Sequence record: NC_031113.1
Reading direction: 5' to 3' (one strand)
From: Escherichia phage Gluttony
Length of the DNA stretch: 44,513 bases
Shown here: positions 10,172-44,131 of the stretch, piece after piece
Position numbering within the stretch: position 1 is the first letter of the stretch
Layout of the letters: every line of letters begins with the position of its first letter
Translations under genes and position numbers: made by a program
Notes under the pieces: model-generated
What the model was told of the DNA's origin: nothing
Seen by the model: only the letters and a program-made list of their open reading frames with translations
Databases searched by the model: none

Positions 10172-11594
10172 CGTTTAAATCCTCGTCGCTTGCTTCTTGC
10201 CATTCCGGGCGCGGGTCGTCAACTGGTGCCAGGACTGGTTTCGCAGGTGCACGCGTGATTTTATCTTGCAGCTTCGCCCACACTTTCGGTTTCTCATCCT
10301 TCAGCACCTTCTCGGCATCAGTAGGGCTGATTAATGATTCCTTGTACATCAGGTCGCGCTTGATCCGGGCCGTTGTGAATACAGCGATAACTTCGCTTTC
10401 ATCCTTCCACTTACGCGCACCTTCACGACCTGCTACCAGCTTCAGGCCCAGCGCTTCGCCGTCACCGGCTAACACTGCTTTGAATACGGCAGCCTCGATC
10501 GCTTTGATGTGCTGGCGCATGGTTTCCAGACCGTCGTAAGCCTTTTTCAATTCTTCCGTGGTCATTGCACCGGCTGGCGCTTCTTTCTCGCCACGCTTCG
10601 CACGTCGGGCCGCTTTCCGGGCTTCGCGGGCCATGTTCCGGTCGTGGTTTTTGCATTCTTCCTCGGTGGCAATGCTTACATCGTCGCCCAGGTCTTCGTC
10701 GGTTGCCGTTGGTGGCGTCATTGTGTCGATGGCGGCTTTAGCGCGGGCACTACATTGATCCGCAAATCGACACCACTGACACGCATCGGCGCTCGGACGG
10801 AAGTCTGCACGGGTGAGATTCTTCTTACCCTTAGCGAAGGCATCCAGGGCGGCTACTGCGCGTTTTGCTGCGTACTTGGCGAAGATTTCCAGTGCTTCCA
10901 CTGAAATATCCCACTCCGATGCGCCGCCGCAATACGGCTGGAAGATGACCAGGCGAACGGTGGTAATGTCGTACATCTTTTGCAGCTTGCGCAGCAGACC
11001 GAGCGCATACAGCATAAGCTGTTTGTTCTCTTTCGCCTCGACCTTATGGCGTCCGGTCTTCAGGTCGCCAACAATCAGCATGTACGTGCCGTCGGTCTTC
11101 TTCATGACCATAACCATATCGGCAGTACCGAAGGTTTTAATCACCTCGCCGTCAATCTCGTAGCCTTTGTGCAGGACGCGTGTCAGATCCGCGCGCATCT
11201 CGAGCTGAACAAACTCCGCCACTTCGAGGAGCGGTCGCCAGTGGTCGATGTACGCGTCGCACTGTTTCACCATATCGTCGTTGACCAGTACGCCGCCTTT
11301 CGGTGCTTTCGGGTGTGCCTTTACTGGCCCCTTTCCTTCGTTCTCGACGTAACACCCTTTATACGTCTTTGCGGTTATCAGCTTTTCACCGGCGATAATG
11401 CGGTTTAGCACGACTTCAGATACGGTGTGCATACTCGTACCGTTAATCGCGGCTTGCCCGGATTCGTTTGGGATATCTTTTTCTACCACCAGAGCGGCAG
11501 GGCAACCCATCCATTTTTTAGCACCGGACGGCCCGAGTAATGAGTGTTCGGTATTGCTACCGGATTGCGTCTTACGTTTTGGTTTAATCGCCAT
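10164..11594 (-). CDS. PD-(D/E)XK (RecB/Cas4-like) exonuclease with Cys cluster and C-terminal extension
   Basis: GTADMVMV, IVGDLKTG, QLMLYA motifs; CQWCRFADQC cluster. Confidence 0.65.
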   Translation of the reverse strand: MAIKPKRKTQSGSNTEHSLLGPSGAKKWMGCPAALVVEKDIPNESGQAAINGTSMHTVSEVVLNRIIAGEKLITAKTYKGCYVENEGKGPVKAHPKAPKGGVLVNDDMVKQCDAYIDHWRPLLEVAEFVQLEMRADLTRVLHKGYEIDGEVIKTFGTADMVMVMKKTDGTYMLIVGDLKTGRHKVEAKENKQLMLYALGLLRKLQKMYDITTVRLVIFQPYCGGASEWDISVEALEIFAKYAAKRAVAALDAFAKGKKNLTRADFRPSADACQWCRFADQCSARAKAAIDTMTPPTATDEDLGDDVSIATEEECKNHDRNMAREARKAARRAKRGEKEAPAGAMTTEELKKAYDGLETMRQHIKAIEAAVFKAVLAGDGEALGLKLVAGREGARKWKDESEVIAVFTTARIKRDLMYKESLISPTDAEKVLKDEKPKVWAKLQDKITRAPAKPVLAPVDDPRPEWQEASDEDLNDE

Positions 11595-32192: not shown

Positions 32193-34835
32193 ATGGCAGA
32201 TCAGGCAGCAGGCATCACGCTAAAGGCGGATGTTGCACAAATCAGAACGGCGAATACTGTGCTTGATTCATTCGCACAGAAATCCGAGAACACAGAAAAC
32301 AAGGTTAAGAAATTAAACGACACCCTCGGCAAATCCAAAAAGGTGACGAGTGACGCCGCGGGCGGAATGGAGAAGCTGGCGACTGAATCGCAGCGCGCTG
32401 CCGATGGCATGACGAAACAGGAGCGACTTGCCAACAGGTTAGGCATGTCGACCAAAAACCTGGGCTTTGCCTCGCGTAACGCCGCATTCCAGTTACAGGA
32501 TATCGCAGTTACGCTTGAGATGGGGATGCCGGTACACCGCGTTATGCTTCAGCAGTTACCGCAGTTAACTGGGGCGTTCGGGGGATTGGGTAACACGCTG
32601 CGTTATGTGGCGGGATTCCTCGGCCCAGTAGGGATCGGCATTGCCGCACTAACGGCAACGTTAGGCGTCGGCGTGGCAGTTACGACCCGAGCAGAAAACC
32701 AGGTCGCAGCGCTTAACAAGACGCTGGCGCTGTCGGGTAACATTTCCGGCCTCACCGCTAACCAGATCCTTGTGCTGTCTGAGAACGCTGAGCGCATGGG
32801 CTGGTCATTCCGCAAGACGCGAGACACCATTCAGGCACTGGCGGCGGCGGGCGTTAAAGCGGGTGCGGACTTCGGCGCGCTGGCGAAAGTGGTGAATGAC
32901 TTTGCGAAGGCGTCTAATCAGCCGATCTCTGACGTGGTTGAATCCATCTCAAAATTGTCGAACGACCCGGTCGGTGGACTGCGCGCACTGGCGGACCAGT
33001 ATCACGTCGTTACCGAGGCGCAGATCCAGCAGGTGCAATCACTAGTGACGGCTGGTCGAGAAACCGAAGCGGTGGCGCTGGCGAACAAAACCGCCGCTGC
33101 GTCGTTCTCCAGCATGACCAATGAGATCAAGTCCAACATGGGTACGCTCGAGCGGTCTATGAACGTCGTCACATCTGCAGCCAAATCCATGTGGGACGCC
33201 ATCCTGGATGTAGGACGCGCGCAGTCATCGAATGAGTCCGAGATGAAAGCGCGTGAATCCTTGCAGCGCATGACCACGGCTTACTATGCCGAGATGAAAG
33301 CGGTAAACGCTGCCGGTGGGGTGATGACCGAGGCGCAGAAAGCGCGTATTAACATGCTTTACAGCGAACTGGTCGCCCAGGAAAAGGTGGTGGCGTCGCT
33401 CACCCTGCGCAACCGCGCCGAGCGAGACAACGCCAGCGCCGCTGACGAAGCAGCAAAGGCGAACGAGGAGGCAAACCGCACCGCCCGCGACCGCGCCGCG
33501 TTTGAGAAGGAGTACGCAACCAACGCGAAGCGGCGAGCCGACGAGATCGCCCGCCTCAATTTGCTGAATAAGCGCGGTGTTATTAACGAGAAAGAACTAG
33601 CCGAGGCGGTGAAGCAGGTCAACGAGCGCTACAAAGACCCAGCACCGAAAAAGGCGGCGGCAATTCGAGTCGATGCCGGGCTGAAAATGCTGGAAGTCGC
33701 GCGAAGCGAATTAGCCCAGCTTCGTGAGTCTGGAAAGCAGATCGAAGCCAACGCATCGACGCAGACCCGCACGCAACGCGCGCAAGCGGCCCTTAACAAG
33801 CTGATCGCGGACCATGAACAGTTAATCGCGGCGAGCAAAGAAAGGGCGCTGACGGCAGCAGAAAAGCAGCAAATGGCGGAGTTCGAGTCGGTTAAATCGG
33901 TACGCGAGCAGATCGTCGAAGAAGCCAAATTGCTGGACGCGAAAGAGAAGCAGATCAAGGCACACGCCCAGGTCGAAGCATTCATCAAGAACCAGAACGC
34001 CGAGCTAAAAGCCACCGCGGCGGGCTATGCGCTTTCTACTCGCGAAGCGGCTAACCTGCGCGAAGAGTTGCAGCTAATTGACCGCCTTCAGCGTGCCGGT
34101 GCTAACGATACTGATATTGACAAGGCGGTGTATAAGCTGCGTGAGGTTCAGGAAGCACAGACCGGTGCTAACGCCTCATTATGGGATGGATTCAGTCGCG
34201 GGCTTCGCGATAGTGTGGATGAAATGGGTAACGGATACACGCAGATGTCGTCACTCACAAAATTCACGTTCGGTGCTATGCAGGACACGATGAACGAGTT
34301 TTTCGAGACTGGCAAGCTGAACGCAAAAGATATGGTTAAGTCCATTCTGAGCGAATTAATAAAGCTGGCTACCTCGCAGGCGTTCAAGTCCATCGTTAGC
34401 GCTTTCGGTGGCGACGGCGGCAAAAACGGATTGTTCGGCGCTATCTTCTCGGGCCTCACTAAGAATGCGGACGGCGGAGCGTACACCGGAGGCAATCTCG
34501 CGGCCTATTCGGGGCAAGTGGTGAGCCAGCCTACCTTTTTCAGTTATGGCGTCCAGGCGTTCGCTAAGGGCGCTGGGTTGATGGGTGAGGCTGGACCCGA
34601 GGCCATCATGCCACTGAAGCGCGGGCCGGACGGGAAACTGGGCGTTGCCGCGTCTGGCGCAGGCGGTGGTATGGTCGTGACGACTAACGTTTACACGGGG
34701 ACCGGTAAGACGGATACCAGTGTTGGCGGGCCGGACCCACGTACCGCGCAGGCGTTCGGCAAGCAAATCACCGAGGCGGTGAAGGCCGAGATCGTGAAGG
34801 CGATGAAACCGGGTGGTGTACTTTACAAACGATGA
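32193..34835 (+). CDS. Tape measure protein
   Basis: 880 aa, Ala-rich with coiled-coil regions, downstream of the chaperone pair. Confidence 0.85.
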   Translation: MADQAAGITLKADVAQIRTANTVLDSFAQKSENTENKVKKLNDTLGKSKKVTSDAAGGMEKLATESQRAADGMTKQERLANRLGMSTKNLGFASRNAAFQLQDIAVTLEMGMPVHRVMLQQLPQLTGAFGGLGNTLRYVAGFLGPVGIGIAALTATLGVGVAVTTRAENQVAALNKTLALSGNISGLTANQILVLSENAERMGWSFRKTRDTIQALAAAGVKAGADFGALAKVVNDFAKASNQPISDVVESISKLSNDPVGGLRALADQYHVVTEAQIQQVQSLVTAGRETEAVALANKTAAASFSSMTNEIKSNMGTLERSMNVVTSAAKSMWDAILDVGRAQSSNESEMKARESLQRMTTAYYAEMKAVNAAGGVMTEAQKARINMLYSELVAQEKVVASLTLRNRAERDNASAADEAAKANEEANRTARDRAAFEKEYATNAKRRADEIARLNLLNKRGVINEKELAEAVKQVNERYKDPAPKKAAAIRVDAGLKMLEVARSELAQLRESGKQIEANASTQTRTQRAQAALNKLIADHEQLIAASKERALTAAEKQQMAEFESVKSVREQIVEEAKLLDAKEKQIKAHAQVEAFIKNQNAELKATAAGYALSTREAANLREELQLIDRLQRAGANDTDIDKAVYKLREVQEAQTGANASLWDGFSRGLRDSVDEMGNGYTQMSSLTKFTFGAMQDTMNEFFETGKLNAKDMVKSILSELIKLATSQAFKSIVSAFGGDGGKNGLFGAIFSGLTKNADGGAYTGGNLAAYSGQVVSQPTFFSYGVQAFAKGAGLMGEAGPEAIMPLKRGPDGKLGVAASGAGGGMVVTTNVYTGTGKTDTSVGGPDPRTAQAFGKQITEAVKAEIVKAMKPGGVLYKR

Positions 34836-34869
34836 TAAAATGGCCCTCACTACAACGTGGGGGCTTTTT

Positions 34870-35469
34870 ATGTCACAAGGTACAATCACACTAACGAAAG
34901 GAAGTAAGACCGTCACGGGCGCGGGAACGGCGTTCCTTAGCGAGATCGGGAAGGTACTCGTATTCGCCCGCATCGACGGCAACGACTACACCGGCAAAAT
35001 TGCGGCATTCAACTCGAACACGGTCATTACTCTGAAAGATAACTGGGCTGGGCCAACGAAATCCGGTGCGGCATATGAGCTAATCGAAGCACACGACCCG
35101 CGATCAAACGAATGGCCATATTACTGGCACATGCAATTGCAGGGCGGTGGCGACGTGCAGTTAGCTTTCCGGTCGGAGGAATTGCAATTCGGTAATGGCT
35201 ACGGACAGAACATCGCGGACGGCCCGAACGCCGAAACGAAACAGTTCCCCGTGCAATTCGTCGGGCTGACTACGGACAAATGGTGCAATCCTAAACTGGT
35301 TTACAACTTCCTTCGCGGTCACTTCGTAAAACCGTTTGTCGTCACCGCGCCGGATGGCGAAACAGGTTTATTCGTGGTCGAGCGTTCGAGCTTGTCGTAC
35401 ACGGACAACGGGCACTACACGGCAACGGTATCCGCCACCCTTAAGACTGCTATTGGATTCGTAAGATGA
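34870..35469 (+). CDS. Minor tail protein with lambda gpM-like C-terminal domain and a fibre-like N-terminal extension
   Basis: QFGNGYGQ resembles lambda M RFGDGYSQ as recalled; N-terminal ~70 aa resemble the tail fibre N-terminus. Confidence 0.65.
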   Translation: MSQGTITLTKGSKTVTGAGTAFLSEIGKVLVFARIDGNDYTGKIAAFNSNTVITLKDNWAGPTKSGAAYELIEAHDPRSNEWPYYWHMQLQGGGDVQLAFRSEELQFGNGYGQNIADGPNAETKQFPVQFVGLTTDKWCNPKLVYNFLRGHFVKPFVVTAPDGETGLFVVERSSLSYTDNGHYTATVSATLKTAIGFVR

Positions 35470-36254
35470 ATAAACTCTATCGTGAAGCGACGCGCTTTGA
35501 CCCCTCAGGACGCGTTCGCCTGATTCACATTGACGCGCAGGACGTGGAACCCGGAGACGGCGCGATCGGCGCGGGCCACCACTATTTTCATTACTGCTTT
35601 ATCCCACACACTGCGGAGGATATCGCTGCCGCGGGTGGTGACGAGGATAAGCTAAAACCTAAATCAATCTTCTTCGGCGGGCAGGAGTTCGAATTTTGGC
35701 CCTTCGATTTGTCCGGCCTTAACTTTTCCACATCGACGGCAGCAGAACCGCAACTAACAATCGTCGATATTGGCGGCATAATAACCCGGCTGTCACTGAA
35801 TCACGACCAGCTACTGGGCGCGAAGGTTGAAATAATCGACACATTCGCGAAGTTCCTGGATAACGGGTCGGACCCAGACCCGACGCAGAAACGAGTGCAG
35901 GAGTATTACATCGACTCGCAGGTCGGGCGCAATCCAGGCAAGCAAATCACCTTCGCACTATCCTCCCCCGCGGATATGGAAGGGCAGGTCGTTCCCCGTC
36001 GCCAGATCATGAACATGTGCGAATGGGCGCTCAACGGGAAGTACGCCAGCGGGGACGGTTGCACATGGAACCTTGCACAGCCTGGAATAAAGTATTACGA
36101 CGAGCGAGGTAATGAAGTCATCGCAATGAATATGGACCGATGCGGCGGCTGTTTGTCCGACTGCTATCTTCGTTTTGGGCAAGGGCTTGCGGATCCTAAA
36201 GCTGCGGTGCTGGACTTCGGTGGTTTTCCTGGGTCCAAATTAATCAAGGGGTAG
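35466..36254 (+). CDS. Minor tail protein, lambda gpL-like
   Basis: C-terminal Cys cluster GCTW...DRCGGCLSDC similar to the lambda L iron-sulfur region as recalled. Confidence 0.75.
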   Translation: MNKLYREATRFDPSGRVRLIHIDAQDVEPGDGAIGAGHHYFHYCFIPHTAEDIAAAGGDEDKLKPKSIFFGGQEFEFWPFDLSGLNFSTSTAAEPQLTIVDIGGIITRLSLNHDQLLGAKVEIIDTFAKFLDNGSDPDPTQKRVQEYYIDSQVGRNPGKQITFALSSPADMEGQVVPRRQIMNMCEWALNGKYASGDGCTWNLAQPGIKYYDERGNEVIAMNMDRCGGCLSDCYLRFGQGLADPKAAVLDFGGFPGSKLIKG

Positions 36255-36256
36255 CC

Positions 36257-36997
36257 ATGTTAACGAAAAAGGTTAAAAGCGATATCGCCGCGCACGTTGC
36301 GGCATGTCTGCCTGAAGAAGCCTGTGGCCTTGTTGTCATGGTGGGCCGCAAACAAGTATTTGTCCCGTGCATGAACGTATTCGAAGACCCGACCGGCGTG
36401 CGCTCACGCAGAGACGCATTCACGATTAGTGATATGGCCTGGATGGATGCCGAGGATATGGGCGACGTCGTGCGAGTAGTCCACTCGCATCCAGGCCAGC
36501 GAGAGCTTACACCCTCACTTGGCGACGTTAACGGATGCAACGGCAGCGGCGTAGTCTGGACCATCACTAACGAATATGGCGACTTTATCGAGATCGACCC
36601 TGAAGACCCGCCGCTGGTAGGCCGCCGATTTGTTCTCGGAATTACAGATTGTTATGGCCTCGTCATGGACTGGCACAAAAAGCAGGGTGTAAACCTGCCA
36701 GACTTCCGCGTGCCGTATAACTGGTGGGAGACAGGCGAAAATCTGTATATGGATAATTGGTACGGTGCTGGCTTCAGGGAATGCGAGGAGAATACGCCGG
36801 GGGCAATGGTCATCATGCAGATTAGCGCGCCTGTGCCTAACCACGCTGGGATATTCCTTCCGGGCAACCAACTACTACACCATATCTACGGCAGCCTGTC
36901 GAGCGTGATTCCCTTCCGGGCAGGATTTTTCCGGGACAATGTGGTTAAATGGGTACGTCATAAAGACCTACCGGGGAATATAACAGAATGGCAATGA
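36257..36997 (+). CDS. Tail assembly protein, lambda gpK-like (JAMM/MPN plus NlpC/P60-like)
   Basis: HSHP...D JAMM-type motif; position. Confidence 0.7.
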   Translation: MLTKKVKSDIAAHVAACLPEEACGLVVMVGRKQVFVPCMNVFEDPTGVRSRRDAFTISDMAWMDAEDMGDVVRVVHSHPGQRELTPSLGDVNGCNGSGVVWTITNEYGDFIEIDPEDPPLVGRRFVLGITDCYGLVMDWHKKQGVNLPDFRVPYNWWETGENLYMDNWYGAGFRECEENTPGAMVIMQISAPVPNHAGIFLPGNQLLHHIYGSLSSVIPFRAGFFRDNVVKWVRHKDLPGNITEWQ

Positions 36998-37605
36998 CCA
37001 CATTTAAATTATACGGCGTTTTAGGACGTCGATTCGGTAAAGTGCATAAGCTGGACTGCTTCACTCCGGGCGAGGGTATTACCGGCCTGTGCGTGAAGTT
37101 ACCCGGCTTACAGGACTTTCTAATGTCAGCCCACCTGGACAATATGATGTTCAAGGTGCGCAAAGGCGACCACACGATGACCGGCTATGATGAGCTGGGT
37201 GAGTTCCACGGCAACCGCGTCGTCACCATCGCGCCGGTTATGACTGGCGCAAAAAGAGGGTTGGGACAATTGCTGGCGGGTGTCGCGATCGTAGTGGCGT
37301 CGTTCTATACGGGCGGACTTGCTACTGCCGCTTTCGGGGCTTCGGCTGCAACCGCTGCCGCTATCGGGACGGCGACGTTTTCGTTCGGGATGTCGATGGC
37401 GCTGGGTGGCGTTATGCAATTGCTGTCGCCACAACCGAAAGGATTGCAGACAAGGCAGGACGTGGATAACAAAGCGTCGTATGCGTTCGGAGGCCCAGTA
37501 AACACTACCGCGCAAGGCACGGCTCTTGGTGTATTATGGGGCGAGCGTGAGATCGGCGGCGCTATTATTTCAGCCGGAATCGTAACCGAGGACTTGAACG
37601 AATGA
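36988..37605 (+). CDS. Tail assembly protein, lambda gpI-like
   Basis: Gly/Ala-rich hydrophobic C-terminus; position before the J-like gene. Confidence 0.65.
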   Translation: MAMTTFKLYGVLGRRFGKVHKLDCFTPGEGITGLCVKLPGLQDFLMSAHLDNMMFKVRKGDHTMTGYDELGEFHGNRVVTIAPVMTGAKRGLGQLLAGVAIVVASFYTGGLATAAFGASAATAAAIGTATFSFGMSMALGGVMQLLSPQPKGLQTRQDVDNKASYAFGGPVNTTAQGTALGVLWGEREIGGAIISAGIVTEDLNE

Positions 37606-40600
37606 CGATTATCTACGACGTCACAGGGCATAAAGGCGGCGGCGGCAAACAGCACACCCCACAGGAGACGCCAGATAGCCTGCATTCGCTGGCTAAAATC
37701 CGCATCTTGCTTGCGCTGGGGGAAGGGGAATTCGAAAGTATTACCAGCGCCAGCGAATTGCGGCAGCGTGTTTACCTTGATGGAACACCGATCCAGAACG
37801 CGGACTTGTCCGAAAACTTCCCCGGCGCGCGGGTGGAGTTCCGCCCAGGCACACAGCACCAGGACGTGATCCACGGATTTTCAGCGGTGGAAAGTGAGCA
37901 ATCCATCGGTGTAAAACTGGAAAACGGCACGCCGTGGGTGCGCCAGATTAACGACACCAGTTTGGACGCCGTGCGCATTCGCATCGGCATTCCGGCCCTG
38001 TACACAAACGAAGATAATGGCGACCTGGTGGGCGGGCGCATCGACTATAAGATCGTTGTGTATACGGATAACGCCGACCCGCGTGAGTTCAGATTCGCCG
38101 CCGTTGGTAAAACAATGTCGCTGTATGAGCGCGACCACCGCATCGAATTACCGCCGAACGTGAATACCGGCTGGCGCGTGGAGGTGCACCGCATAACGGC
38201 AGACTCCACATCGGCGAAAGTGGTTAATGATATCCGGGTGCAGTCCATCACTGAGATTATTGACGCCCGCCTGCGTTACCCGCTAACCGCGCTGTTGTTT
38301 GTGGAGTTCGACGCCAAAGCGTTCCAGAACATCCCGCGCGTGTCCATCAAGTGCAAAGGCCGCAAAGTTCTAATACCGAACAACTACGACCCGATTAATC
38401 ATACCTATTCCGGGGACTGGGACGGCACGTTTAAACGCGCATGGACGGATAACCCTGCGTGGCACTGGTACGATATTTGTATTACTGAGCGCTTCGGCCT
38501 CGGTCGGCGTATCAAACCGCAAATGTTAAACCGGTACGCGCTCTACCAGATTGCGCAGCGCTGCGATCAGTTGGTCAGCGACGGCAACGGTGGTCGAGAA
38601 ATCCGCTTTAAGAATGATATGTACATTCAGTCACAGACGGATGCCTGGACCGTGCTTAAGGATTTAGCCGCCATCTTCGCCGGAATGACCTGGTGGGGCA
38701 ACCAGATGTTGAATATCGTCAGTGACCAACCGGTCGCAGCAGTGTCGCACACTATCACCAACGCCTCGGTTATTGATGGTCGATTCGACTACGCGTCCGG
38801 TAGCCAGAAAACTCGGTATTCCACATTCGCGGTAGCATACGGCAACCCGAAGAACCACTATGAAGATGCCATCGCAACGGGGCAACGTGTCGAACTGGTA
38901 CGCCGCCATAAGATTAACCGTCTTGATATAACGGCGATCGGCTGTACGCGTGAGTCAGAAGCGCAACGACGTGGGCACTGGGCGCTAATCTCCAACCAGC
39001 TTGACCAGCAAGTTAGCTTTAAGGTGGGCATGGAGGGACTTTTCTTTATTCCTGGTAGCGTAGTCGCGATCGCCGATACAAACATTTCTGGCGGCTTCGA
39101 GACACGCGGCGGTCGCCTGTTGTCGGACCCTGGCACGCGTACCGTGCTTAACACGGACAGCGAAATCACATTCCGCCCAGGTGATAAATTCCTGGTACGC
39201 ACCGATAGTGGTAATGTAGAGACTCGCGAGATCGCCAGCGTCAACGGCAACAAGGTTACGCTAAAAACCGCACTGGACGCCGACCCGATTCCTGATCAGC
39301 CGTTTTGCGTCGATGGCAACGATATCCAGTTGCAGAAGTTCCGCATCACCGACCTGGAATATGACGACTCTACGAGCACTTTCTCGGTGCGCGGGATTGA
39401 ATACAACGATAGCAAATATGATGCCGTTGATAATGGCGCGCGCCTAGACCCGGGCATCTTTACGCAAGTGCCTGACGGGGTAATGAAGGGGCCGGAATCC
39501 GTGACCATCACCCCGTCGCAGATTTCATCGCAAGGACAGCTAATCACCAACGTGGATATTGTATTCCCTCCGGTGAAGGATGCCGTGGTGTATGAAATCC
39601 AGTGGAGGCGTACCAGCCTTCAGAATATGGAAATCCAGTGGGGTAACGACTGGGTGAATATCCCACGCACGGCGTCGAACGGCGCGCACATCCCTAACGT
39701 GTTCTCCGGTAACTACCAGGCACGCGTCCGCGCGATCGGTATGGGCGAGATTTCATCTCCGTGGGTGTCGTCCGCCATCACGCCGGTGGAAGGTCGTCTC
39801 GGTGGGCTTAACGCACCAATCATCACCAACGCTATTTCGGGCCTTCACCAGATCTTGTGGAAGTGGAACCACAACAACGCCGCTACTGATATCTCGTACA
39901 CCGAGCTTGAAGTGCGCAAGACCGGTGAGACTGAATGGAAATTCCTTACCAACGTCCCATATCCGGGGGCGGAGTATGCGCAAACATCGCTGGAGTTCGG
40001 AATTTACCAGCAGTTGCGCGCCCGTGTAGCGGATAAAATCGGCAACCGGTCGGACTGGTCGGCCCCGTTTGAAGGGCAGGTGAGTGACAAAGTTGACGAG
40101 TACATGAAGGGGCTTGATGACGAGTTCTTGACTTCCGAGGATGGTAAACACTTCCAGGAAGCTATTAACACGATCCCGCAAGGCATTTATGAGTCAATGC
40201 TCACCGACGCCCAGCAGCTATTCAACGCCCGCGCCGAGTACAAAGGGATTTATGCGGAAATCAAGGTGACGTATAACGTGGCGGCGGACGCCCACAAGGC
40301 GGTCGCTCAACTGGAGACGTTGATCGGCACGCGACTTGATGACGCGGAAGCTGCGATCCGCACGTTGCAGACCGCGCAGAGCACACAGGAACAAGCGTTC
40401 GCCCAGTACCAGCAAACTGTTGCCGCTAAGTTCGGGGAACAGGAAGCCGCCATCCAGCAGGTACAAACGGCAACCGCAGACGTGGCGGGAGCGCTGGCGG
40501 AATATAAGACCCAGGTCGCTACACAGTTCGGTCAGCAGTCCGCCGCTATCGAGCAGAAGATGACGTCCTCGTTTAACCACTCTGGTGGTAGCGCCACGTA

Positions 40601-41021
40601 TAGCCTTAAGGCTGGCGTGACATATAACGGGACTTATTATGATGCGGGTATGCAGCTTTCCGTTGTGACGTCTGGCAACGCGGTTAAATCGCGTATTGCG
40701 TTCAAGGCGGACCAGTTCTACATCATGCATCCGTCCAATGGGACGCTGTCGTCTGCGTTTATTGTGGACGGTGGCGCGGTGTATATCGACACGGCACGCA
40801 TCAAGAACGCGTCCATCAACTTCGCGCAGATAACAGACACGCTGCAATCGAATAACTACGACGGCAGCACGCGCGGCTGGCGCTTAGGGAAAGATGGAAC
40901 GTTTATCAACCTGGGCACCGGTAGCGGCGGCGGGATGAAACAGACGAACACAAGAATCAGCGTGAAGGACGGAAACGGCGTTCTCCGCGTGCAGATTGGT
41001 GAGCTTACTGGTAGCTGGTAG
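37602..41021 (+). CDS. Central tail fibre / host specificity protein, lambda gpJ-like
   Basis: 1139 aa; N-terminal third resembles lambda J as recalled (YSGxWDGTF, YxIxQxCDQ, DGxGGxExR). Confidence 0.85.
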   Translation: MTIIYDVTGHKGGGGKQHTPQETPDSLHSLAKIRILLALGEGEFESITSASELRQRVYLDGTPIQNADLSENFPGARVEFRPGTQHQDVIHGFSAVESEQSIGVKLENGTPWVRQINDTSLDAVRIRIGIPALYTNEDNGDLVGGRIDYKIVVYTDNADPREFRFAAVGKTMSLYERDHRIELPPNVNTGWRVEVHRITADSTSAKVVNDIRVQSITEIIDARLRYPLTALLFVEFDAKAFQNIPRVSIKCKGRKVLIPNNYDPINHTYSGDWDGTFKRAWTDNPAWHWYDICITERFGLGRRIKPQMLNRYALYQIAQRCDQLVSDGNGGREIRFKNDMYIQSQTDAWTVLKDLAAIFAGMTWWGNQMLNIVSDQPVAAVSHTITNASVIDGRFDYASGSQKTRYSTFAVAYGNPKNHYEDAIATGQRVELVRRHKINRLDITAIGCTRESEAQRRGHWALISNQLDQQVSFKVGMEGLFFIPGSVVAIADTNISGGFETRGGRLLSDPGTRTVLNTDSEITFRPGDKFLVRTDSGNVETREIASVNGNKVTLKTALDADPIPDQPFCVDGNDIQLQKFRITDLEYDDSTSTFSVRGIEYNDSKYDAVDNGARLDPGIFTQVPDGVMKGPESVTITPSQISSQGQLITNVDIVFPPVKDAVVYEIQWRRTSLQNMEIQWGNDWVNIPRTASNGAHIPNVFSGNYQARVRAIGMGEISSPWVSSAITPVEGRLGGLNAPIITNAISGLHQILWKWNHNNAATDISYTELEVRKTGETEWKFLTNVPYPGAEYAQTSLEFGIYQQLRARVADKIGNRSDWSAPFEGQVSDKVDEYMKGLDDEFLTSEDGKHFQEAINTIPQGIYESMLTDAQQLFNARAEYKGIYAEIKVTYNVAADAHKAVAQLETLIGTRLDDAEAAIRTLQTAQSTQEQAFAQYQQTVAAKFGEQEAAIQQVQTATADVAGALAEYKTQVATQFGQQSAAIEQKMTSSFNHSGGSATYSLKAGVTYNGTYYDAGMQLSVVTSGNAVKSRIAFKADQFYIMHPSNGTLSSAFIVDGGAVYIDTARIKNASINFAQITDTLQSNNYDGSTRGWRLGKDGTFINLGTGSGGGMKQTNTRISVKDGNGVLRVQIGELTGSW

Positions 41022-41057: not shown

Positions 41058-41360
41058 ATGGCATTCGGTATCGCAACGTGGGACGCGCAAGGACGCCCAA
41101 ACAACTACGGCATTAAACCGGTAAGCGTGATCGGAAGGATTCATCTTGCGGAAGGACAAAAATCAGGCGCATGGTCATTCCCTGTACCGGCGGGGATGAA
41201 GGTCGGATACGTGGTCGCACTGGATAAAGGCGCGGTCGGGCCAGGCCGCAGAATAACCGCCAGCGGGAACACTATCACGGTTTCCGCGGCAAGTGCGGTA
41301 GGTGGCGGGGTTTACTCCGCATCTGAATGTGACGTTATTGTTTTTGTGGAGCGAGCATAA
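41058..41360 (+). CDS. Hypothetical tail-associated protein, 100 aa
   Basis: ORF track; position after the J-like gene. Confidence 0.4.
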   Translation: MAFGIATWDAQGRPNNYGIKPVSVIGRIHLAEGQKSGAWSFPVPAGMKVGYVVALDKGAVGPGRRITASGNTITVSAASAVGGGVYSASECDVIVFVERA

Positions 41361-42034
41361 TGGCTAATTACGGCGCGTTGATTGACTTACCAAACGGCAA
41401 CCCGTTTATCACGCCAGAATCGACGCCGTTTTGTCTATTCCGCCGTGTGGTTGTTGGGTCTTCGGCTAACGGCACTGCGCAGTCGGCGGCTGCCGATATT
41501 AATTTGGGCGGTGACTACCCTGCAATAGCGTTTGTGAAAACTACGCACACCGCCCAGCCGACCGTCGTAGGGTCTTCTCGCGTTGGTAATGTGGTGAAGG
41601 TGAGCGCCAGCAATCCATTCGGGCAAGGCTTCACGATGACGGCTTACATCTTTGCCATATTCCCACAGACCCTTCCGCGGTGGGGCTTCGCTATTTGGGA
41701 TAAGACGGGGAAGCTAGTGCTTACTAATGAGAGTCGCGTACTGAGCGATTTAGTTACCGTCGGGTCGCCTGGCGCTAACGGGGGGATTAACATTGATCAG
41801 ACGCTAAACGGCAGCTACGCCGTCGCACCGGGAATATTGGGGTCTACGCTGATCCGGTTTTTTGTGCAGGGCCAGCCGCAGGTAATATCGGTAACGGCGT
41901 ACACGGGGGCCAGATTTGATGGGTCGCGAACGCGTATATCGGCAGCGTCGTCAGGGAACGCCACGGGGGATGTGGTGGGGTATACTAACAACGGCAACGC
42001 GATTATGGCGATTAACACTGCCAATTATGATTGA
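41360..42034 (+). CDS. Hypothetical tail-associated protein, 224 aa
   Basis: ORF track; followed by a terminator. Confidence 0.45.
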   Translation: MANYGALIDLPNGNPFITPESTPFCLFRRVVVGSSANGTAQSAAADINLGGDYPAIAFVKTTHTAQPTVVGSSRVGNVVKVSASNPFGQGFTMTAYIFAIFPQTLPRWGFAIWDKTGKLVLTNESRVLSDLVTVGSPGANGGINIDQTLNGSYAVAPGILGSTLIRFFVQGQPQVISVTAYTGARFDGSRTRISAASSGNATGDVVGYTNNGNAIMAINTANYD

Positions 42035-42036
42035 AG

Positions 42037-42060
42037 AAAGCCCCGAAAGGGGCTTATTTG
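42037..42060. terminator. Bidirectional intrinsic terminator
   Basis: AAGCCCC-GAAA-GGGGCTT with T-rich flanks. Confidence 0.6.
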
Positions 42061-42272
42061 CAGGTTGTGCTTTTGAAATGGTCTACAGACACGTACTGGA
42101 AGCTAAACGGATAACCCGCCCTTAGCATTTTATGCCCGGAGAAGTCCGCAACACCATACACAGGTACCGCATAATCCATGCCGCTATTCTGGTATGTGGC
42201 GTCGCAGACTTTAGCGGGCATGTTGGCACAACCGGACAAAAGAACCGCACAAATCATAATTAAAGTTTTCAT
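42054..42272 (-). CDS. Moron: small secreted lipoprotein, candidate superinfection-exclusion (receptor-blocking) protein
   Basis: MKTLIMICAVLLSGC signal peptide with lipobox; AGGAGA RBS; own promoter and terminator; opposite strand between tail genes and tail fibre. Confidence 0.65.
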   Translation of the reverse strand: MKTLIMICAVLLSGCANMPAKVCDATYQNSGMDYAVPVYGVADFSGHKMLRAGYPFSFQYVSVDHFKSTTCK

Positions 42273-42303
42273 GGTATCATCTCCTATATTTGGTCGAGTT
42301 TCA

Positions 42304-42331
42304 GTATTACACCGCTCAACCAGGATTGCAA
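42304..42331 (-). promoter_or_regulatory. Promoter for the lipoprotein moron (TTGCAA-16-TAATAC) containing AATTGGTTGCA
   Basis: Hexamer spacing read on the minus strand. Confidence 0.45.
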
Positions 42332-42352
42332 CCAATTTATGAGGATTTAGCT

Positions 42353-44131
42353 ATGGCAGCGGGCACACTATCCGTAACGAATAACAGCAAGGCGGTTGTA
42401 GGGGTCGGCACAACGTTTACCTCGTTTAACGCTGGCGACTTCTTAACGCTGGTGGTAGGACAAGTCCCCTACACCGTAGCAATCGCGTCCATTGAAAGCG
42501 AAACCGCGCTTACGCTGGTGTTGCCGTTCGACGGCCCAACGGCAACCGGCCTCGCGTGGGATGGCGTTAAGCGCGATACCATGTCACTGGCGACGATGGG
42601 TGTAACCGTACAGGCACAGAAAGCATTGCGCTTGATGATTGCAGATGAAAACAACTGGCGTGCAATCTTCGGCGACGCTGAAGAAATCACCGTGACGCTG
42701 CCTAACGGGCAGGTAATGCAGGGTATGTCATGGGGCTACCTGTCGCAGTTGATGAAACAGATCGACCCCGTTGAGATGCTAAACCTGCAACAACAAGCCG
42801 CCGCATCGGAAGCAGCCGCGCAAGGATACCGCGACCAGGCCGAAGGCATTAAAACCGAGACGGCAGGCATCCGCGACGACACCAGGTTGATTAATGCTGA
42901 TACGCTGGCGATCCGCAACGACACCGATGCCATCAGGACGAATACCAACCAGATTAAATCAGATACGCAGGCCATTAAGGACCAGACGAACCAGATCAAG
43001 ACGGACACCGGCGTTATTCGCGACGAAGCCAATACCGCGAAGACGGACGCGCAATCCGCCCGCGATGCTGCGCTGGGATACCGGAACGAGGCCGAACAGT
43101 TCAAGAATGAGATCGACCCGTCGAAACTTCTGGCAAAGGCCAACAACCTTAGCGACGTTGCCGACCCCGCGGCAGCGCGCGACCACTTAGGCATCGGGCC
43201 TGACGACACCCTTAACCTTGGTGGCCTGGTAACGTCCGGCAGTATCTCCGCGGGCCGCAACACATGGGATGGGTCTAACTGGGGGAGCCAGGGACTTCTC
43301 GCCTCATTAGTGGTCCTATACCCGGACGGAAGCTCAGCCCCAGGCTTATACGTGCGAAAATCCAACGGCGACAGCGGATATGCGGCGGGATGGTTGTATA
43401 ACGAGAACAGTATCAGTTGGGCTACTAACGCGCGTATTGCGGGCTTTCAGTTCCGGTCCCCTAAAGGCGCGATGGGGTATAACCAGCTATGGTCAGAGGC
43501 TGTGGTGCGTGCGGACGACTTCATGGCACAGAATGGCGCGGAAAACTATAAGTCGTTAATCGCGGGGGCCGCTACAACGCAAGGTCACGGATACTCGGGC
43601 GGTGTCTCGTTCGGGATAATGACAACTGGCATAAACAACTGGCCCCGGGCGCAGATCTCGATCGGCACAGCAGACCGTGACGCCGCTGGGAATATGGCTT
43701 CGCAGATGCACTTCCGCTTTAATGAATATGGGCAGATTTCTTACACAGGGCCACTGGGGACGGGGTCGTTCCAGCAAGTACCTGCGTCGGATCGCAACCT
43801 GAAGCATGACATTGCCGATGACGCAAGCAGCACCGCCTACGACAATATCAAGGCTTTGCGGTTCCGCACGTTCGTATTCAACAACGATGAACAGGAACGG
43901 CAGCGTCGCGGTATTATTGCGCAGGAAGCGGAAGAAATCGACCCGCTGTATGTGAAGCACCGCGTGTATAACAATCACGAATTAAATGGGCCTCTGGTGC
44001 ACCAGCTTGAACTGGATACGACACCGCTGTTACTCGACACTATGCGAGCGTTGCAGGATACGATTAAGCAGGTGGAGGATTTGAAGGCGGAGATCGCAGC
44101 GATGAAGCAGGCGGAAGAGTTGAAGAAATAA
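42353..44131 (+). CDS. Tail fibre with DT-rich repeat shaft and C-terminal intramolecular chaperone (Peptidase_S74-like) domain
   Basis: Start at MAAGTLSV with GAGGA RBS; repeats DT..I..; C-terminal SDRNLKHDIADDASSTAYDNIKALRFRTFVFNN. Confidence 0.75.
   Translation: MAAGTLSVTNNSKAVVGVGTTFTSFNAGDFLTLVVGQVPYTVAIASIESETALTLVLPFDGPTATGLAWDGVKRDTMSLATMGVTVQAQKALRLMIADENNWRAIFGDAEEITVTLPNGQVMQGMSWGYLSQLMKQIDPVEMLNLQQQAAASEAAAQGYRDQAEGIKTETAGIRDDTRLINADTLAIRNDTDAIRTNTNQIKSDTQAIKDQTNQIKTDTGVIRDEANTAKTDAQSARDAALGYRNEAEQFKNEIDPSKLLAKANNLSDVADPAAARDHLGIGPDDTLNLGGLVTSGSISAGRNTWDGSNWGSQGLLASLVVLYPDGSSAPGLYVRKSNGDSGYAAGWLYNENSISWATNARIAGFQFRSPKGAMGYNQLWSEAVVRADDFMAQNGAENYKSLIAGAATTQGHGYSGGVSFGIMTTGINNWPRAQISIGTADRDAAGNMASQMHFRFNEYGQISYTGPLGTGSFQQVPASDRNLKHDIADDASSTAYDNIKALRFRTFVFNNDEQERQRRGIIAQEAEEIDPLYVKHRVYNNHELNGPLVHQLELDTTPLLLDTMRALQDTIKQVEDLKAEIAAMKQAEELKK

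Follow-up and report, generated by a model that had tools for sequence, protein, structure and literature searches.

[quoted passage not shown] The reading that we prefer, and to which we would give about an even chance, is that of an 'evolved Dit' in which a captured fibre-anchor barrel serves as an accessory at the periphery, maintained by selection yet dispensable, while the lateral fibre would dock on the shaft of gpJ in the manner of F-pyocin side fibres.

Tail-tip genes of the window

The window belongs to Dhillonvirus (HK578-like E. coli phages), and its segment 34000–44513 was 100% identical to Escherichia phages Lust and Pride and 90–95% identical to more than 100 further Dhillonvirus records. 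The lambda-like tail-tip module comprises the tape measure protein (TMP, 32193–34835), the gpM-like Dit of 199 aa (plus strand, ATG at 34870, starting MSQGTITLTKGS), gpL (35466–36254), gpK (36257–36997), gpI (36988–37605) and a gpJ-like central fibre of 1139 aa (37602–41021, plus strand) with the Pfam domains FNIII-A_GpJ, Phage-tail_3 and Phage_Tail_Tip. The lateral tail fibre of 592 aa (42353–44131, plus strand) starts MAAGTLSVTNNS at ATG 42353, which is preceded by a GAGGA Shine-Dalgarno sequence. Within the Dit, residues 1–79 (34870..35106, plus strand) cover the N-terminal β-barrel (approximately residues 1–72), the side-fibre N-domain homologue, together with a low-confidence linker, IEAHDPRSNE; residues 80–199 and the stop codon (35107..35469, plus strand) encode the gpM-type tail-tube-fold core, the predicted distal ring. 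In the fibre, residues 1–72 (42353..42568, plus strand) form the N-terminal β-barrel at the conserved virion-anchor end, and residues 73–106 (42569..42670, plus strand; KRDTMSLATMGVTVQAQKALRLMIADENNWRAIFG) form a stem segment that has no counterpart in the Dit.

Several GenBank/NCBI records begin the Dit at an upstream GTG (34813–34869, giving 218 or 212 aa) that overlaps the tape measure stop. The ATG at 34870 was taken as the start because of the 199-aa chain in the PDB, the break in homology with the related contig L002 and the N-termini of the fibres.

A receptor-binding module lies 3' of gpJ (41058–42335), with the gene order of N15 gp21–gp25. It contains two small N15-type receptor-binding-module proteins (41058–42034; a 100-aa phrog_557 and a 224-aa phrog_425 protein) and, on the minus strand, a 93-aa ORF (42054–42335), in which an internal Met opens the lipobox signal MKTLIMICAVLLSGC and which, from this lipobox, resembles the Cor superinfection-exclusion lipoprotein. 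In databases, proteins of this module go by the names 'outer membrane protein' and 'membrane associated protein', which are probably misleading.

Homology of the two N-terminal domains

The close alignment of the first ~70 residues of the Dit with the fibre N-terminus, proposed in a sequence-only reading of this DNA, was borne out by BLASTP with composition-adjusted statistics (residues 1–70; 27/71 identical, 38%; 54% positives; E 6e-8). Compositional bias had been named beforehand as the test of this claim, and it was excluded as the source of the similarity, since shuffles never came near the observed score: the first 75 residues gave a Smith-Waterman score of 104, against 26.5 ± 4.9 (maximum 57) for composition-preserving shuffles, none of which attained 104 (0/10,000; 5000 per direction). 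At the family level, the Dit N-terminus matched three tail-fibre PHROGs at their N-termini (phrog_17834, E 2.4e-17; phrog_28473, E 4.9e-15; phrog_1980, E 3.6e-14) and, reciprocally, residues 1–72 of the fibre matched the Dit family phrog_9922 (E 1.2e-6). Gly, Thr and Tyr positions were invariant and common to 18 members of the barrel family. A chance likeness of two Thr/Gly/Ser/Val-rich N-termini without homology, for which the richness of both in small and β-branched residues might speak, is thus extremely improbable in view of the shuffles, the E-value of the pairwise match, the reciprocal family matches and the invariant residues. A six-frame HMM scan of the window found two copies of the domain, those of the Dit and the fibre, and no third.

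The Dit core and its predicted structure

The same reading had placed a lambda M-like motif in the C-terminal half of the Dit, and this half indeed matched Pfam PF05939 (Phage_min_tail) over residues 86–187 with 44.3 bits (cut-off 39). The gene also occupies the position expected of gpM-type Dits (TMP, Dit, gpL), and the invariant Trp86 aligns with W6 of lambda gpM. The AF2 model of the Dit aligned with the T1 Dit (9l9p_H; Foldseek E 4.4e-6, TMt 0.71) and with lambda gpM (8iyk_E; E 2.3e-3, TMt 0.69). The full-length model was of moderate quality (pLDDT 70.9), with an unreliable domain orientation, and in Foldseek searches it gave matches for the Dit half only, the barrel being modelled separately. 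The barrel model was predicted to be well folded, as a small six- or seven-stranded β-barrel. The homology with fibres ends at approximately residue 72 and is followed by the low-confidence linker and then the ring domain.

The protein has a close structural counterpart in the PDB entry 23gd, where chain B, annotated 'Distal tail protein gp20', matched the window Dit with E 2.1e-131 (199-aa chain, approximately 95% identical). The entry contains two gp20 chains per one chain of 'J-like tail tip protein gp24', an indirect pointer to a Dit hexamer beneath the final ring of the tube, and its gene numbering suits the BASEL phage Oekolampad (Bas18), to which we infer that it belongs. No paper describing 23gd was found in the literature searched, and the papers on Sf11, on Bas14 (SNIPE) and on Oekolampad LptDE do not contain this Dit.

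Distribution of the fusion and of the barrel

Among 1.84 billion representative proteins, the fusion over Dit residues 1–199 occurred in one 50%-identity cluster only, that of the Dhillonvirus Dit (P0002). All other Dit relatives in this library had 112–125 aa, even those 56–66% identical in the core, and no hidden Dit domain was found in the barrel-bearing representatives of about 200 aa. In cultured phages the fusion was present in 156 records, all of Dhillonvirus type, and the other 61 barrel matches were N-termini of fibres from N15, HK225, ES18-like, Erwinia, Cronobacter and Pseudomonas phages. An assignment of the Pseudomonas matches to JBD30-like phages was considered and rejected; they are lambda/F-pyocin-like instead. 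Two of the cultured-phage records deserve a remark. The 'Campylobacter phage A144' (MG065648.1, 9635–9874) has a Dit barrel 100% identical to that of the window and is probably an E. coli Dhillonvirus under a different host label; in the 88.6-kb record of P-GXEC-L2P5 (PQ843332.1) the matches were duplicated, and a concatenated assembly is probable.

No Pfam model for the barrel family was found. Among the 150 best-scoring representatives listed, 128 proteins bore a barrel, and in 62 of these it was the single N-terminal barrel of a fibre. In the second context, as many as 12 barrels followed one another in tandem within large proteins that had PKD, NHL or CBM_5_12 domains as well. Four such proteins (P0037, P0038, P0040 and P0100) had 10–12 tandem barrels in 1200–2500 aa, with PKD, NHL, CBM_5_12 or multihaem motifs. 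The occurrence in both contexts points to a generic extracellular module, which serves lambdoid side fibres as an anchor.

Origin of the Dit barrel

Alignment of the window with L002 by blastn showed approximately 90% identity from the head genes to position 34872, 67.6% over 35185–35624 and 91% from 35658 onwards. Since homology to L002 stops exactly at the Dit ATG and returns at approximately codon 64 of gpL, the entire Dit ORF and the first ~64 gpL codons (34870..35657, plus strand; boundaries from blastn against L002 and from gene tables) constitute an exchanged, mosaic cassette. The window-type cassette combines a barrel-bearing Dit with a plain gpL, and the alternative cassette of the relatives (L002, 10001–11013; L003, 5772–6780) combines a plain 123-aa Dit with a 415-aa gpL that has an insertion of ~150 residues, so that the Dit barrel and the gpL insertion look like alternative peripheral add-ons. 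In T1 the corresponding N-terminal part of gpL touches the Dit. The gpL insertion of L002 (gpL residues ~55–205; gene at 10362–11609 of L002) lies outside every Pfam family and weakly matches residues 500–617 of the 'Megatron protein' of roseophage R4C (8gtc_M, E 1.8e-4).

The suggestion that the shared domain arose by duplication within this genome found no support in this comparison: the barrel lies in the recombined cassette, and the DNA of the two copies was ~53% identical over aligned codons. The Dit barrel was 41–49% identical to the fibre N-termini of the N15/HK225/Erwinia type and less so to those of the resident fibre type (32–39%; 29–43% for the resident fibre barrel). This closer match to the N15/HK225/Erwinia barrels and the low DNA identity speak against a recent duplication within the genome and for the capture of the 5' end of a fibre gene or, failing that, a duplication of great age. 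To judge from the alignments, the lack in the Dit of the stem segment that the fibres have in common argues for capture of the barrel alone. The donor would have been a side-fibre gene of the lambdoid/F-pyocin type, contributing its barrel minus the stem, and the barrel would since have travelled as part of the cassette of the Dit and the gpL N-terminus.

The lateral fibre and the F-pyocin precedent

The lateral fibre matched phrog_1980 (E 1.9e-142), its C-terminus matched an L-shaped tail fibre (8hqz_d), and it ends in an intramolecular chaperone domain (Peptidase_S74, Pfam PF13884, residues 479–534, E 1.4e-11). Its barrel (residues 1–72) is near-identical in L002; according to the BASEL paper, the fibre gene is conserved only at its far 5' end.

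The barrel family extends to the side fibres of F-pyocins (PyoF13/PA0643 and PA0646; PDB 25ve and 25vj), whose homologous N-domain has, as in the window, ~75 residues and is termed an OB-like barrel by its authors. Residues 5–81 of the F2-pyocin side fibre (25ve_A) were matched by the Dit barrel in phmmer (E 1.1e-4); PDB profile hits to 23gd and 25ve were excluded from the evidence as circular, the profile having included those sequences. In hhalign, the N-regions of enterobacterial fibres and of Pseudomonas/F-pyocin-type fibres aligned with a probability of 97% (E 5.9e-11), and the aligned region went beyond the barrel, up to column 97. A conserved N/Q-W motif was present in the stem segment of the fibres of the window, L001, N15, Salmonella phage S135 and Pseudomonas lambdoid phage CF183a, and by analogy with F-pyocins the segment 73–106 is presumed to be helical.

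In three independent cryo-EM studies of F-pyocins (PMC13455828; bioRxiv 10.64898/2026.02.24.707460; PMC12874032), three trimeric side fibres are attached by their N-domain to the coiled-coil shaft of the gpJ-like central fibre rather than to the Dit. Docking uses two of the three barrels of each trimer plus the stem helices; the stem segment builds a six-helix bundle, and the barrels, packed side by side, make up a pseudo-sixfold ring in which one per trimer is unengaged (PMC13455828). The window fibre resembles the F-pyocin fibre in that it begins with the barrel, continues into a stem and is encoded in the same locus as a homologous central fibre; the order of a leading barrel and then a stem, which holds for the fibre at 42353, fails for the Dit copy. 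Unlike the F-pyocin domain, the Dit barrel is fused ahead of a ring subunit with the tail-tube fold, lacks a stem and is expected in six copies at the Dit ring; conversely, the F-pyocin Dit (PA0637/PyoF6) has no barrel domain.

PDB matches of the window gpJ were 23gd_D (E 0), the F2-pyocin central fibre (25vf_A, E 1.7e-223) and T1 (9l9p_S), and its C-terminal part matched residues 977–1187 of 25vf_A with E 3e-18. Part of the coiled-coil shaft of this F2-pyocin protein aligns with gpJ residues ~892–990, which, by analogy, are a candidate docking site for the barrel and stem of the lateral fibre. With the CF183a homologue as a bridge, no reliable alignment was obtained between the window gpJ and the docking kink and acidic patch of F-pyocins. 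From homology and from the relatives described below, we infer that the lateral fibre most likely docks through its own barrel and stem on the gpJ coiled coil, and that the Dit barrel would not be needed for this.

Is the Dit barrel required for fibre docking?

The two metagenomic contigs L002 and L003 are near-identical to the window in the TMP (93%), gpJ (98%) and the fibre barrel (99%), yet encode a 123-aa Dit without a barrel; their viability is assumed, and the gpL insertion there might substitute for the barrel. A search of other relatives gave the same combination of a barrel-headed fibre with a short Dit in L001, N15, S135 and CF183a, in all of which gpJ carries the Phage_Tail_Tip domain. 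The existence of such relatives implies that this type of fibre does not need a Dit barrel and that the Dit barrel is not its required docking site. The idea that the two N-terminal domains are a common docking module is therefore unsupported in its original form, in view of these barrel-less Dits, the docking of the F-pyocin barrel and stem on the central-fibre shaft and the lack of a stem in the Dit copy, although the Dit barrel may still play some part in holding the fibre.

The strongest alternative to our preferred reading is that the Dit barrel is an adaptor for the fibre, with six Dit barrels pairing homotypically with fibre barrels in a mixed collar at the junction of tube and Dit (for example, 6 Dit + 6 fibre), which would put the anchoring of the lateral fibre, or the setting of its copy number, at the Dhillonvirus Dit. 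Several observations are in keeping with it: the Dit and fibre domains are homologous; F-pyocin barrels form a lateral, pseudo-sixfold ring in which one per trimer stays free; Dits are the usual platform for fibres, and the collars of Ur-lambda and T5 are 12-mers at the same position, where the Dit N-terminus would lie. It has to contend, however, with the near-identical fibre barrel and gpJ that occur alongside barrel-less Dits in L002 and L003, with the lack of a Dit barrel in N15, S135, L001 and CF183a as well, and with the absence from the Dit copy of the segment that makes the six-helix bundle in F-pyocins. Nor did the two barrels co-diverge among four Dhillonvirus genomes, the Dit barrel of bov15_1 being 70% and its fibre barrel 92% identical, against 87% and 76% in WF5505. 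No PDB chain besides gp20 itself matched the fibre N-terminus, so no fibre chain of this kind is deposited alongside the Dit in 23gd or elsewhere. We consider such an adaptor unlikely, although a serious contender.

A related formulation, in which the Dit barrel would be the built-in half of a hetero-oligomeric fibre collar, six of them interleaved with fibre barrels at the tube/Dit junction, an anchor module having moved from fibre to ring in Dhillonviruses, seems doubtful to us. If it were true, a second docking mode would exist for a fibre type that in other systems sits on the central-fibre shaft, and this mode would be exchangeable through the swap of a ~0.8-kb cassette.

At a site within the barrel where the other Dits have GAGTAFLSEIG, that of WF5505 (L009; MK373790, 10001–10600) has GAGRRSWSEIG, the result of either a sequencing error or a short, compensated frameshift.

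Selection on the Dit barrel

Estimates of dN/dS, which like the co-divergence comparison come from four genomes with dS saturated in the comparisons with LM40P1, were 0.11–0.45 for the Dit barrel, 0.02–0.06 for the Dit core and 0.08–0.18 for the fibre barrel. The Dit barrel is thus under purifying selection that is 5–10 times looser than that on the Dit core and similar to or looser than that on the fibre barrel. That the barrel is a neutral passenger, a functionless recombination relic carried along in the Dit cassette, would fit its dispensability in relatives, its 5–10 times faster evolution than the core and its place within a mosaic cassette. It is nevertheless improbable, being disfavoured by the selection and by the universal retention in the genus: dN/dS lies well below 1, frame and length were intact in 156/156 Dhillonvirus-type records, including lineages merely 70% identical, and the barrel is predicted to be well folded.

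Proposed arrangement in the virion

In our preferred reading, a gpM-type ring subunit would carry the ~72-residue β-barrel N-terminally through a short flexible linker. Six barrels would then form a peripheral crown at the tube/Dit junction, where Ur-lambda has its fibre collar; such a crown is expected because gpM-type Dits have an N-terminus that faces outwards at this junction. In Ur-lambda the 12-mer Stf collar contacts K2 and W6 of gpM (PMC12617516), and since W86 of the window Dit aligns with this W6 and the fusion point of the barrel lies a few residues before it, the barrels should project at the position of the collar. The Dit barrel is most likely a surface decoration that may contribute weak adhesion to the cell surface or stabilise the periphery of the tip, by analogy with the OB-like Dit domains of T5, Chi and JBD30; no carbohydrate-binding signature was found in the barrel.

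The place and mode of side-fibre attachment are a key design rule for host-range engineering of siphophage tail tips. Here, a single phage genus has a fibre-anchor barrel grafted onto its Dit ring as part of a short, exchangeable cassette, and natural, isogenic-like controls without the barrel exist. The locus therefore offers a clean system in which to ask whether such barrels are docking modules or decorations, and whether fibres of the N15/Dhillonvirus type sit on the gpJ shaft as those of F-pyocins do. The practical importance is modest, since a structure of the Dit has already been deposited and the fibre is clearly independent of the fusion; as a tidy case of modular tail-tip evolution, it extends the known theme of the 'decorated Dit'.

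Comparison with other tail-tip systems

Lambda gpM and T1 gp37 represent the minimal Dit and are like the C-terminal 120 residues of the window Dit in family, fold and position between TMP and gpL; unlike it, they have 109–117 aa and no N-terminal extension. The Ur-lambda Stf collar (residues 1–94, a 12-mer at the gpV/gpM junction) provides a case in which the N-domain of a fibre contacts the N-terminus of gpM, which is the site of the barrel fusion here. Its fold differs, however, being a six-stranded sheet plus a helix, described as Ig-like, and the collar is built by the fibre and not by the Dit. In PDB searches no sequence match was detected between the barrel and Stf residues 1–94, and the two were not found to be similar in fold or sequence.

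In T5 pb9, domain B (an OB fold; PDB 4JMQ) is a barrel that follows the ring domain, whereas the window Dit barrel precedes it, and the fibres of T5 attach through a separate p132 collar. The hhalign probability between the barrel and the pb9 B domain was 14%; neither window copy matched Pfam PF21430 (DTP-pb9_B-dom), and other members of the barrel family gave sub-threshold matches only (E 0.003–0.008).

The evolved Dits of Sf11 (gp17), Chi, JBD30 and lactococcal phages are like the window Dit in using the ring as a scaffold for extra peripheral domains. Their extensions are larger and C-terminal or inserted, whereas that of the window is N-terminal and derived from a fibre-anchor domain; the Sf11 extension has been shown to bind tailspikes via a helix.
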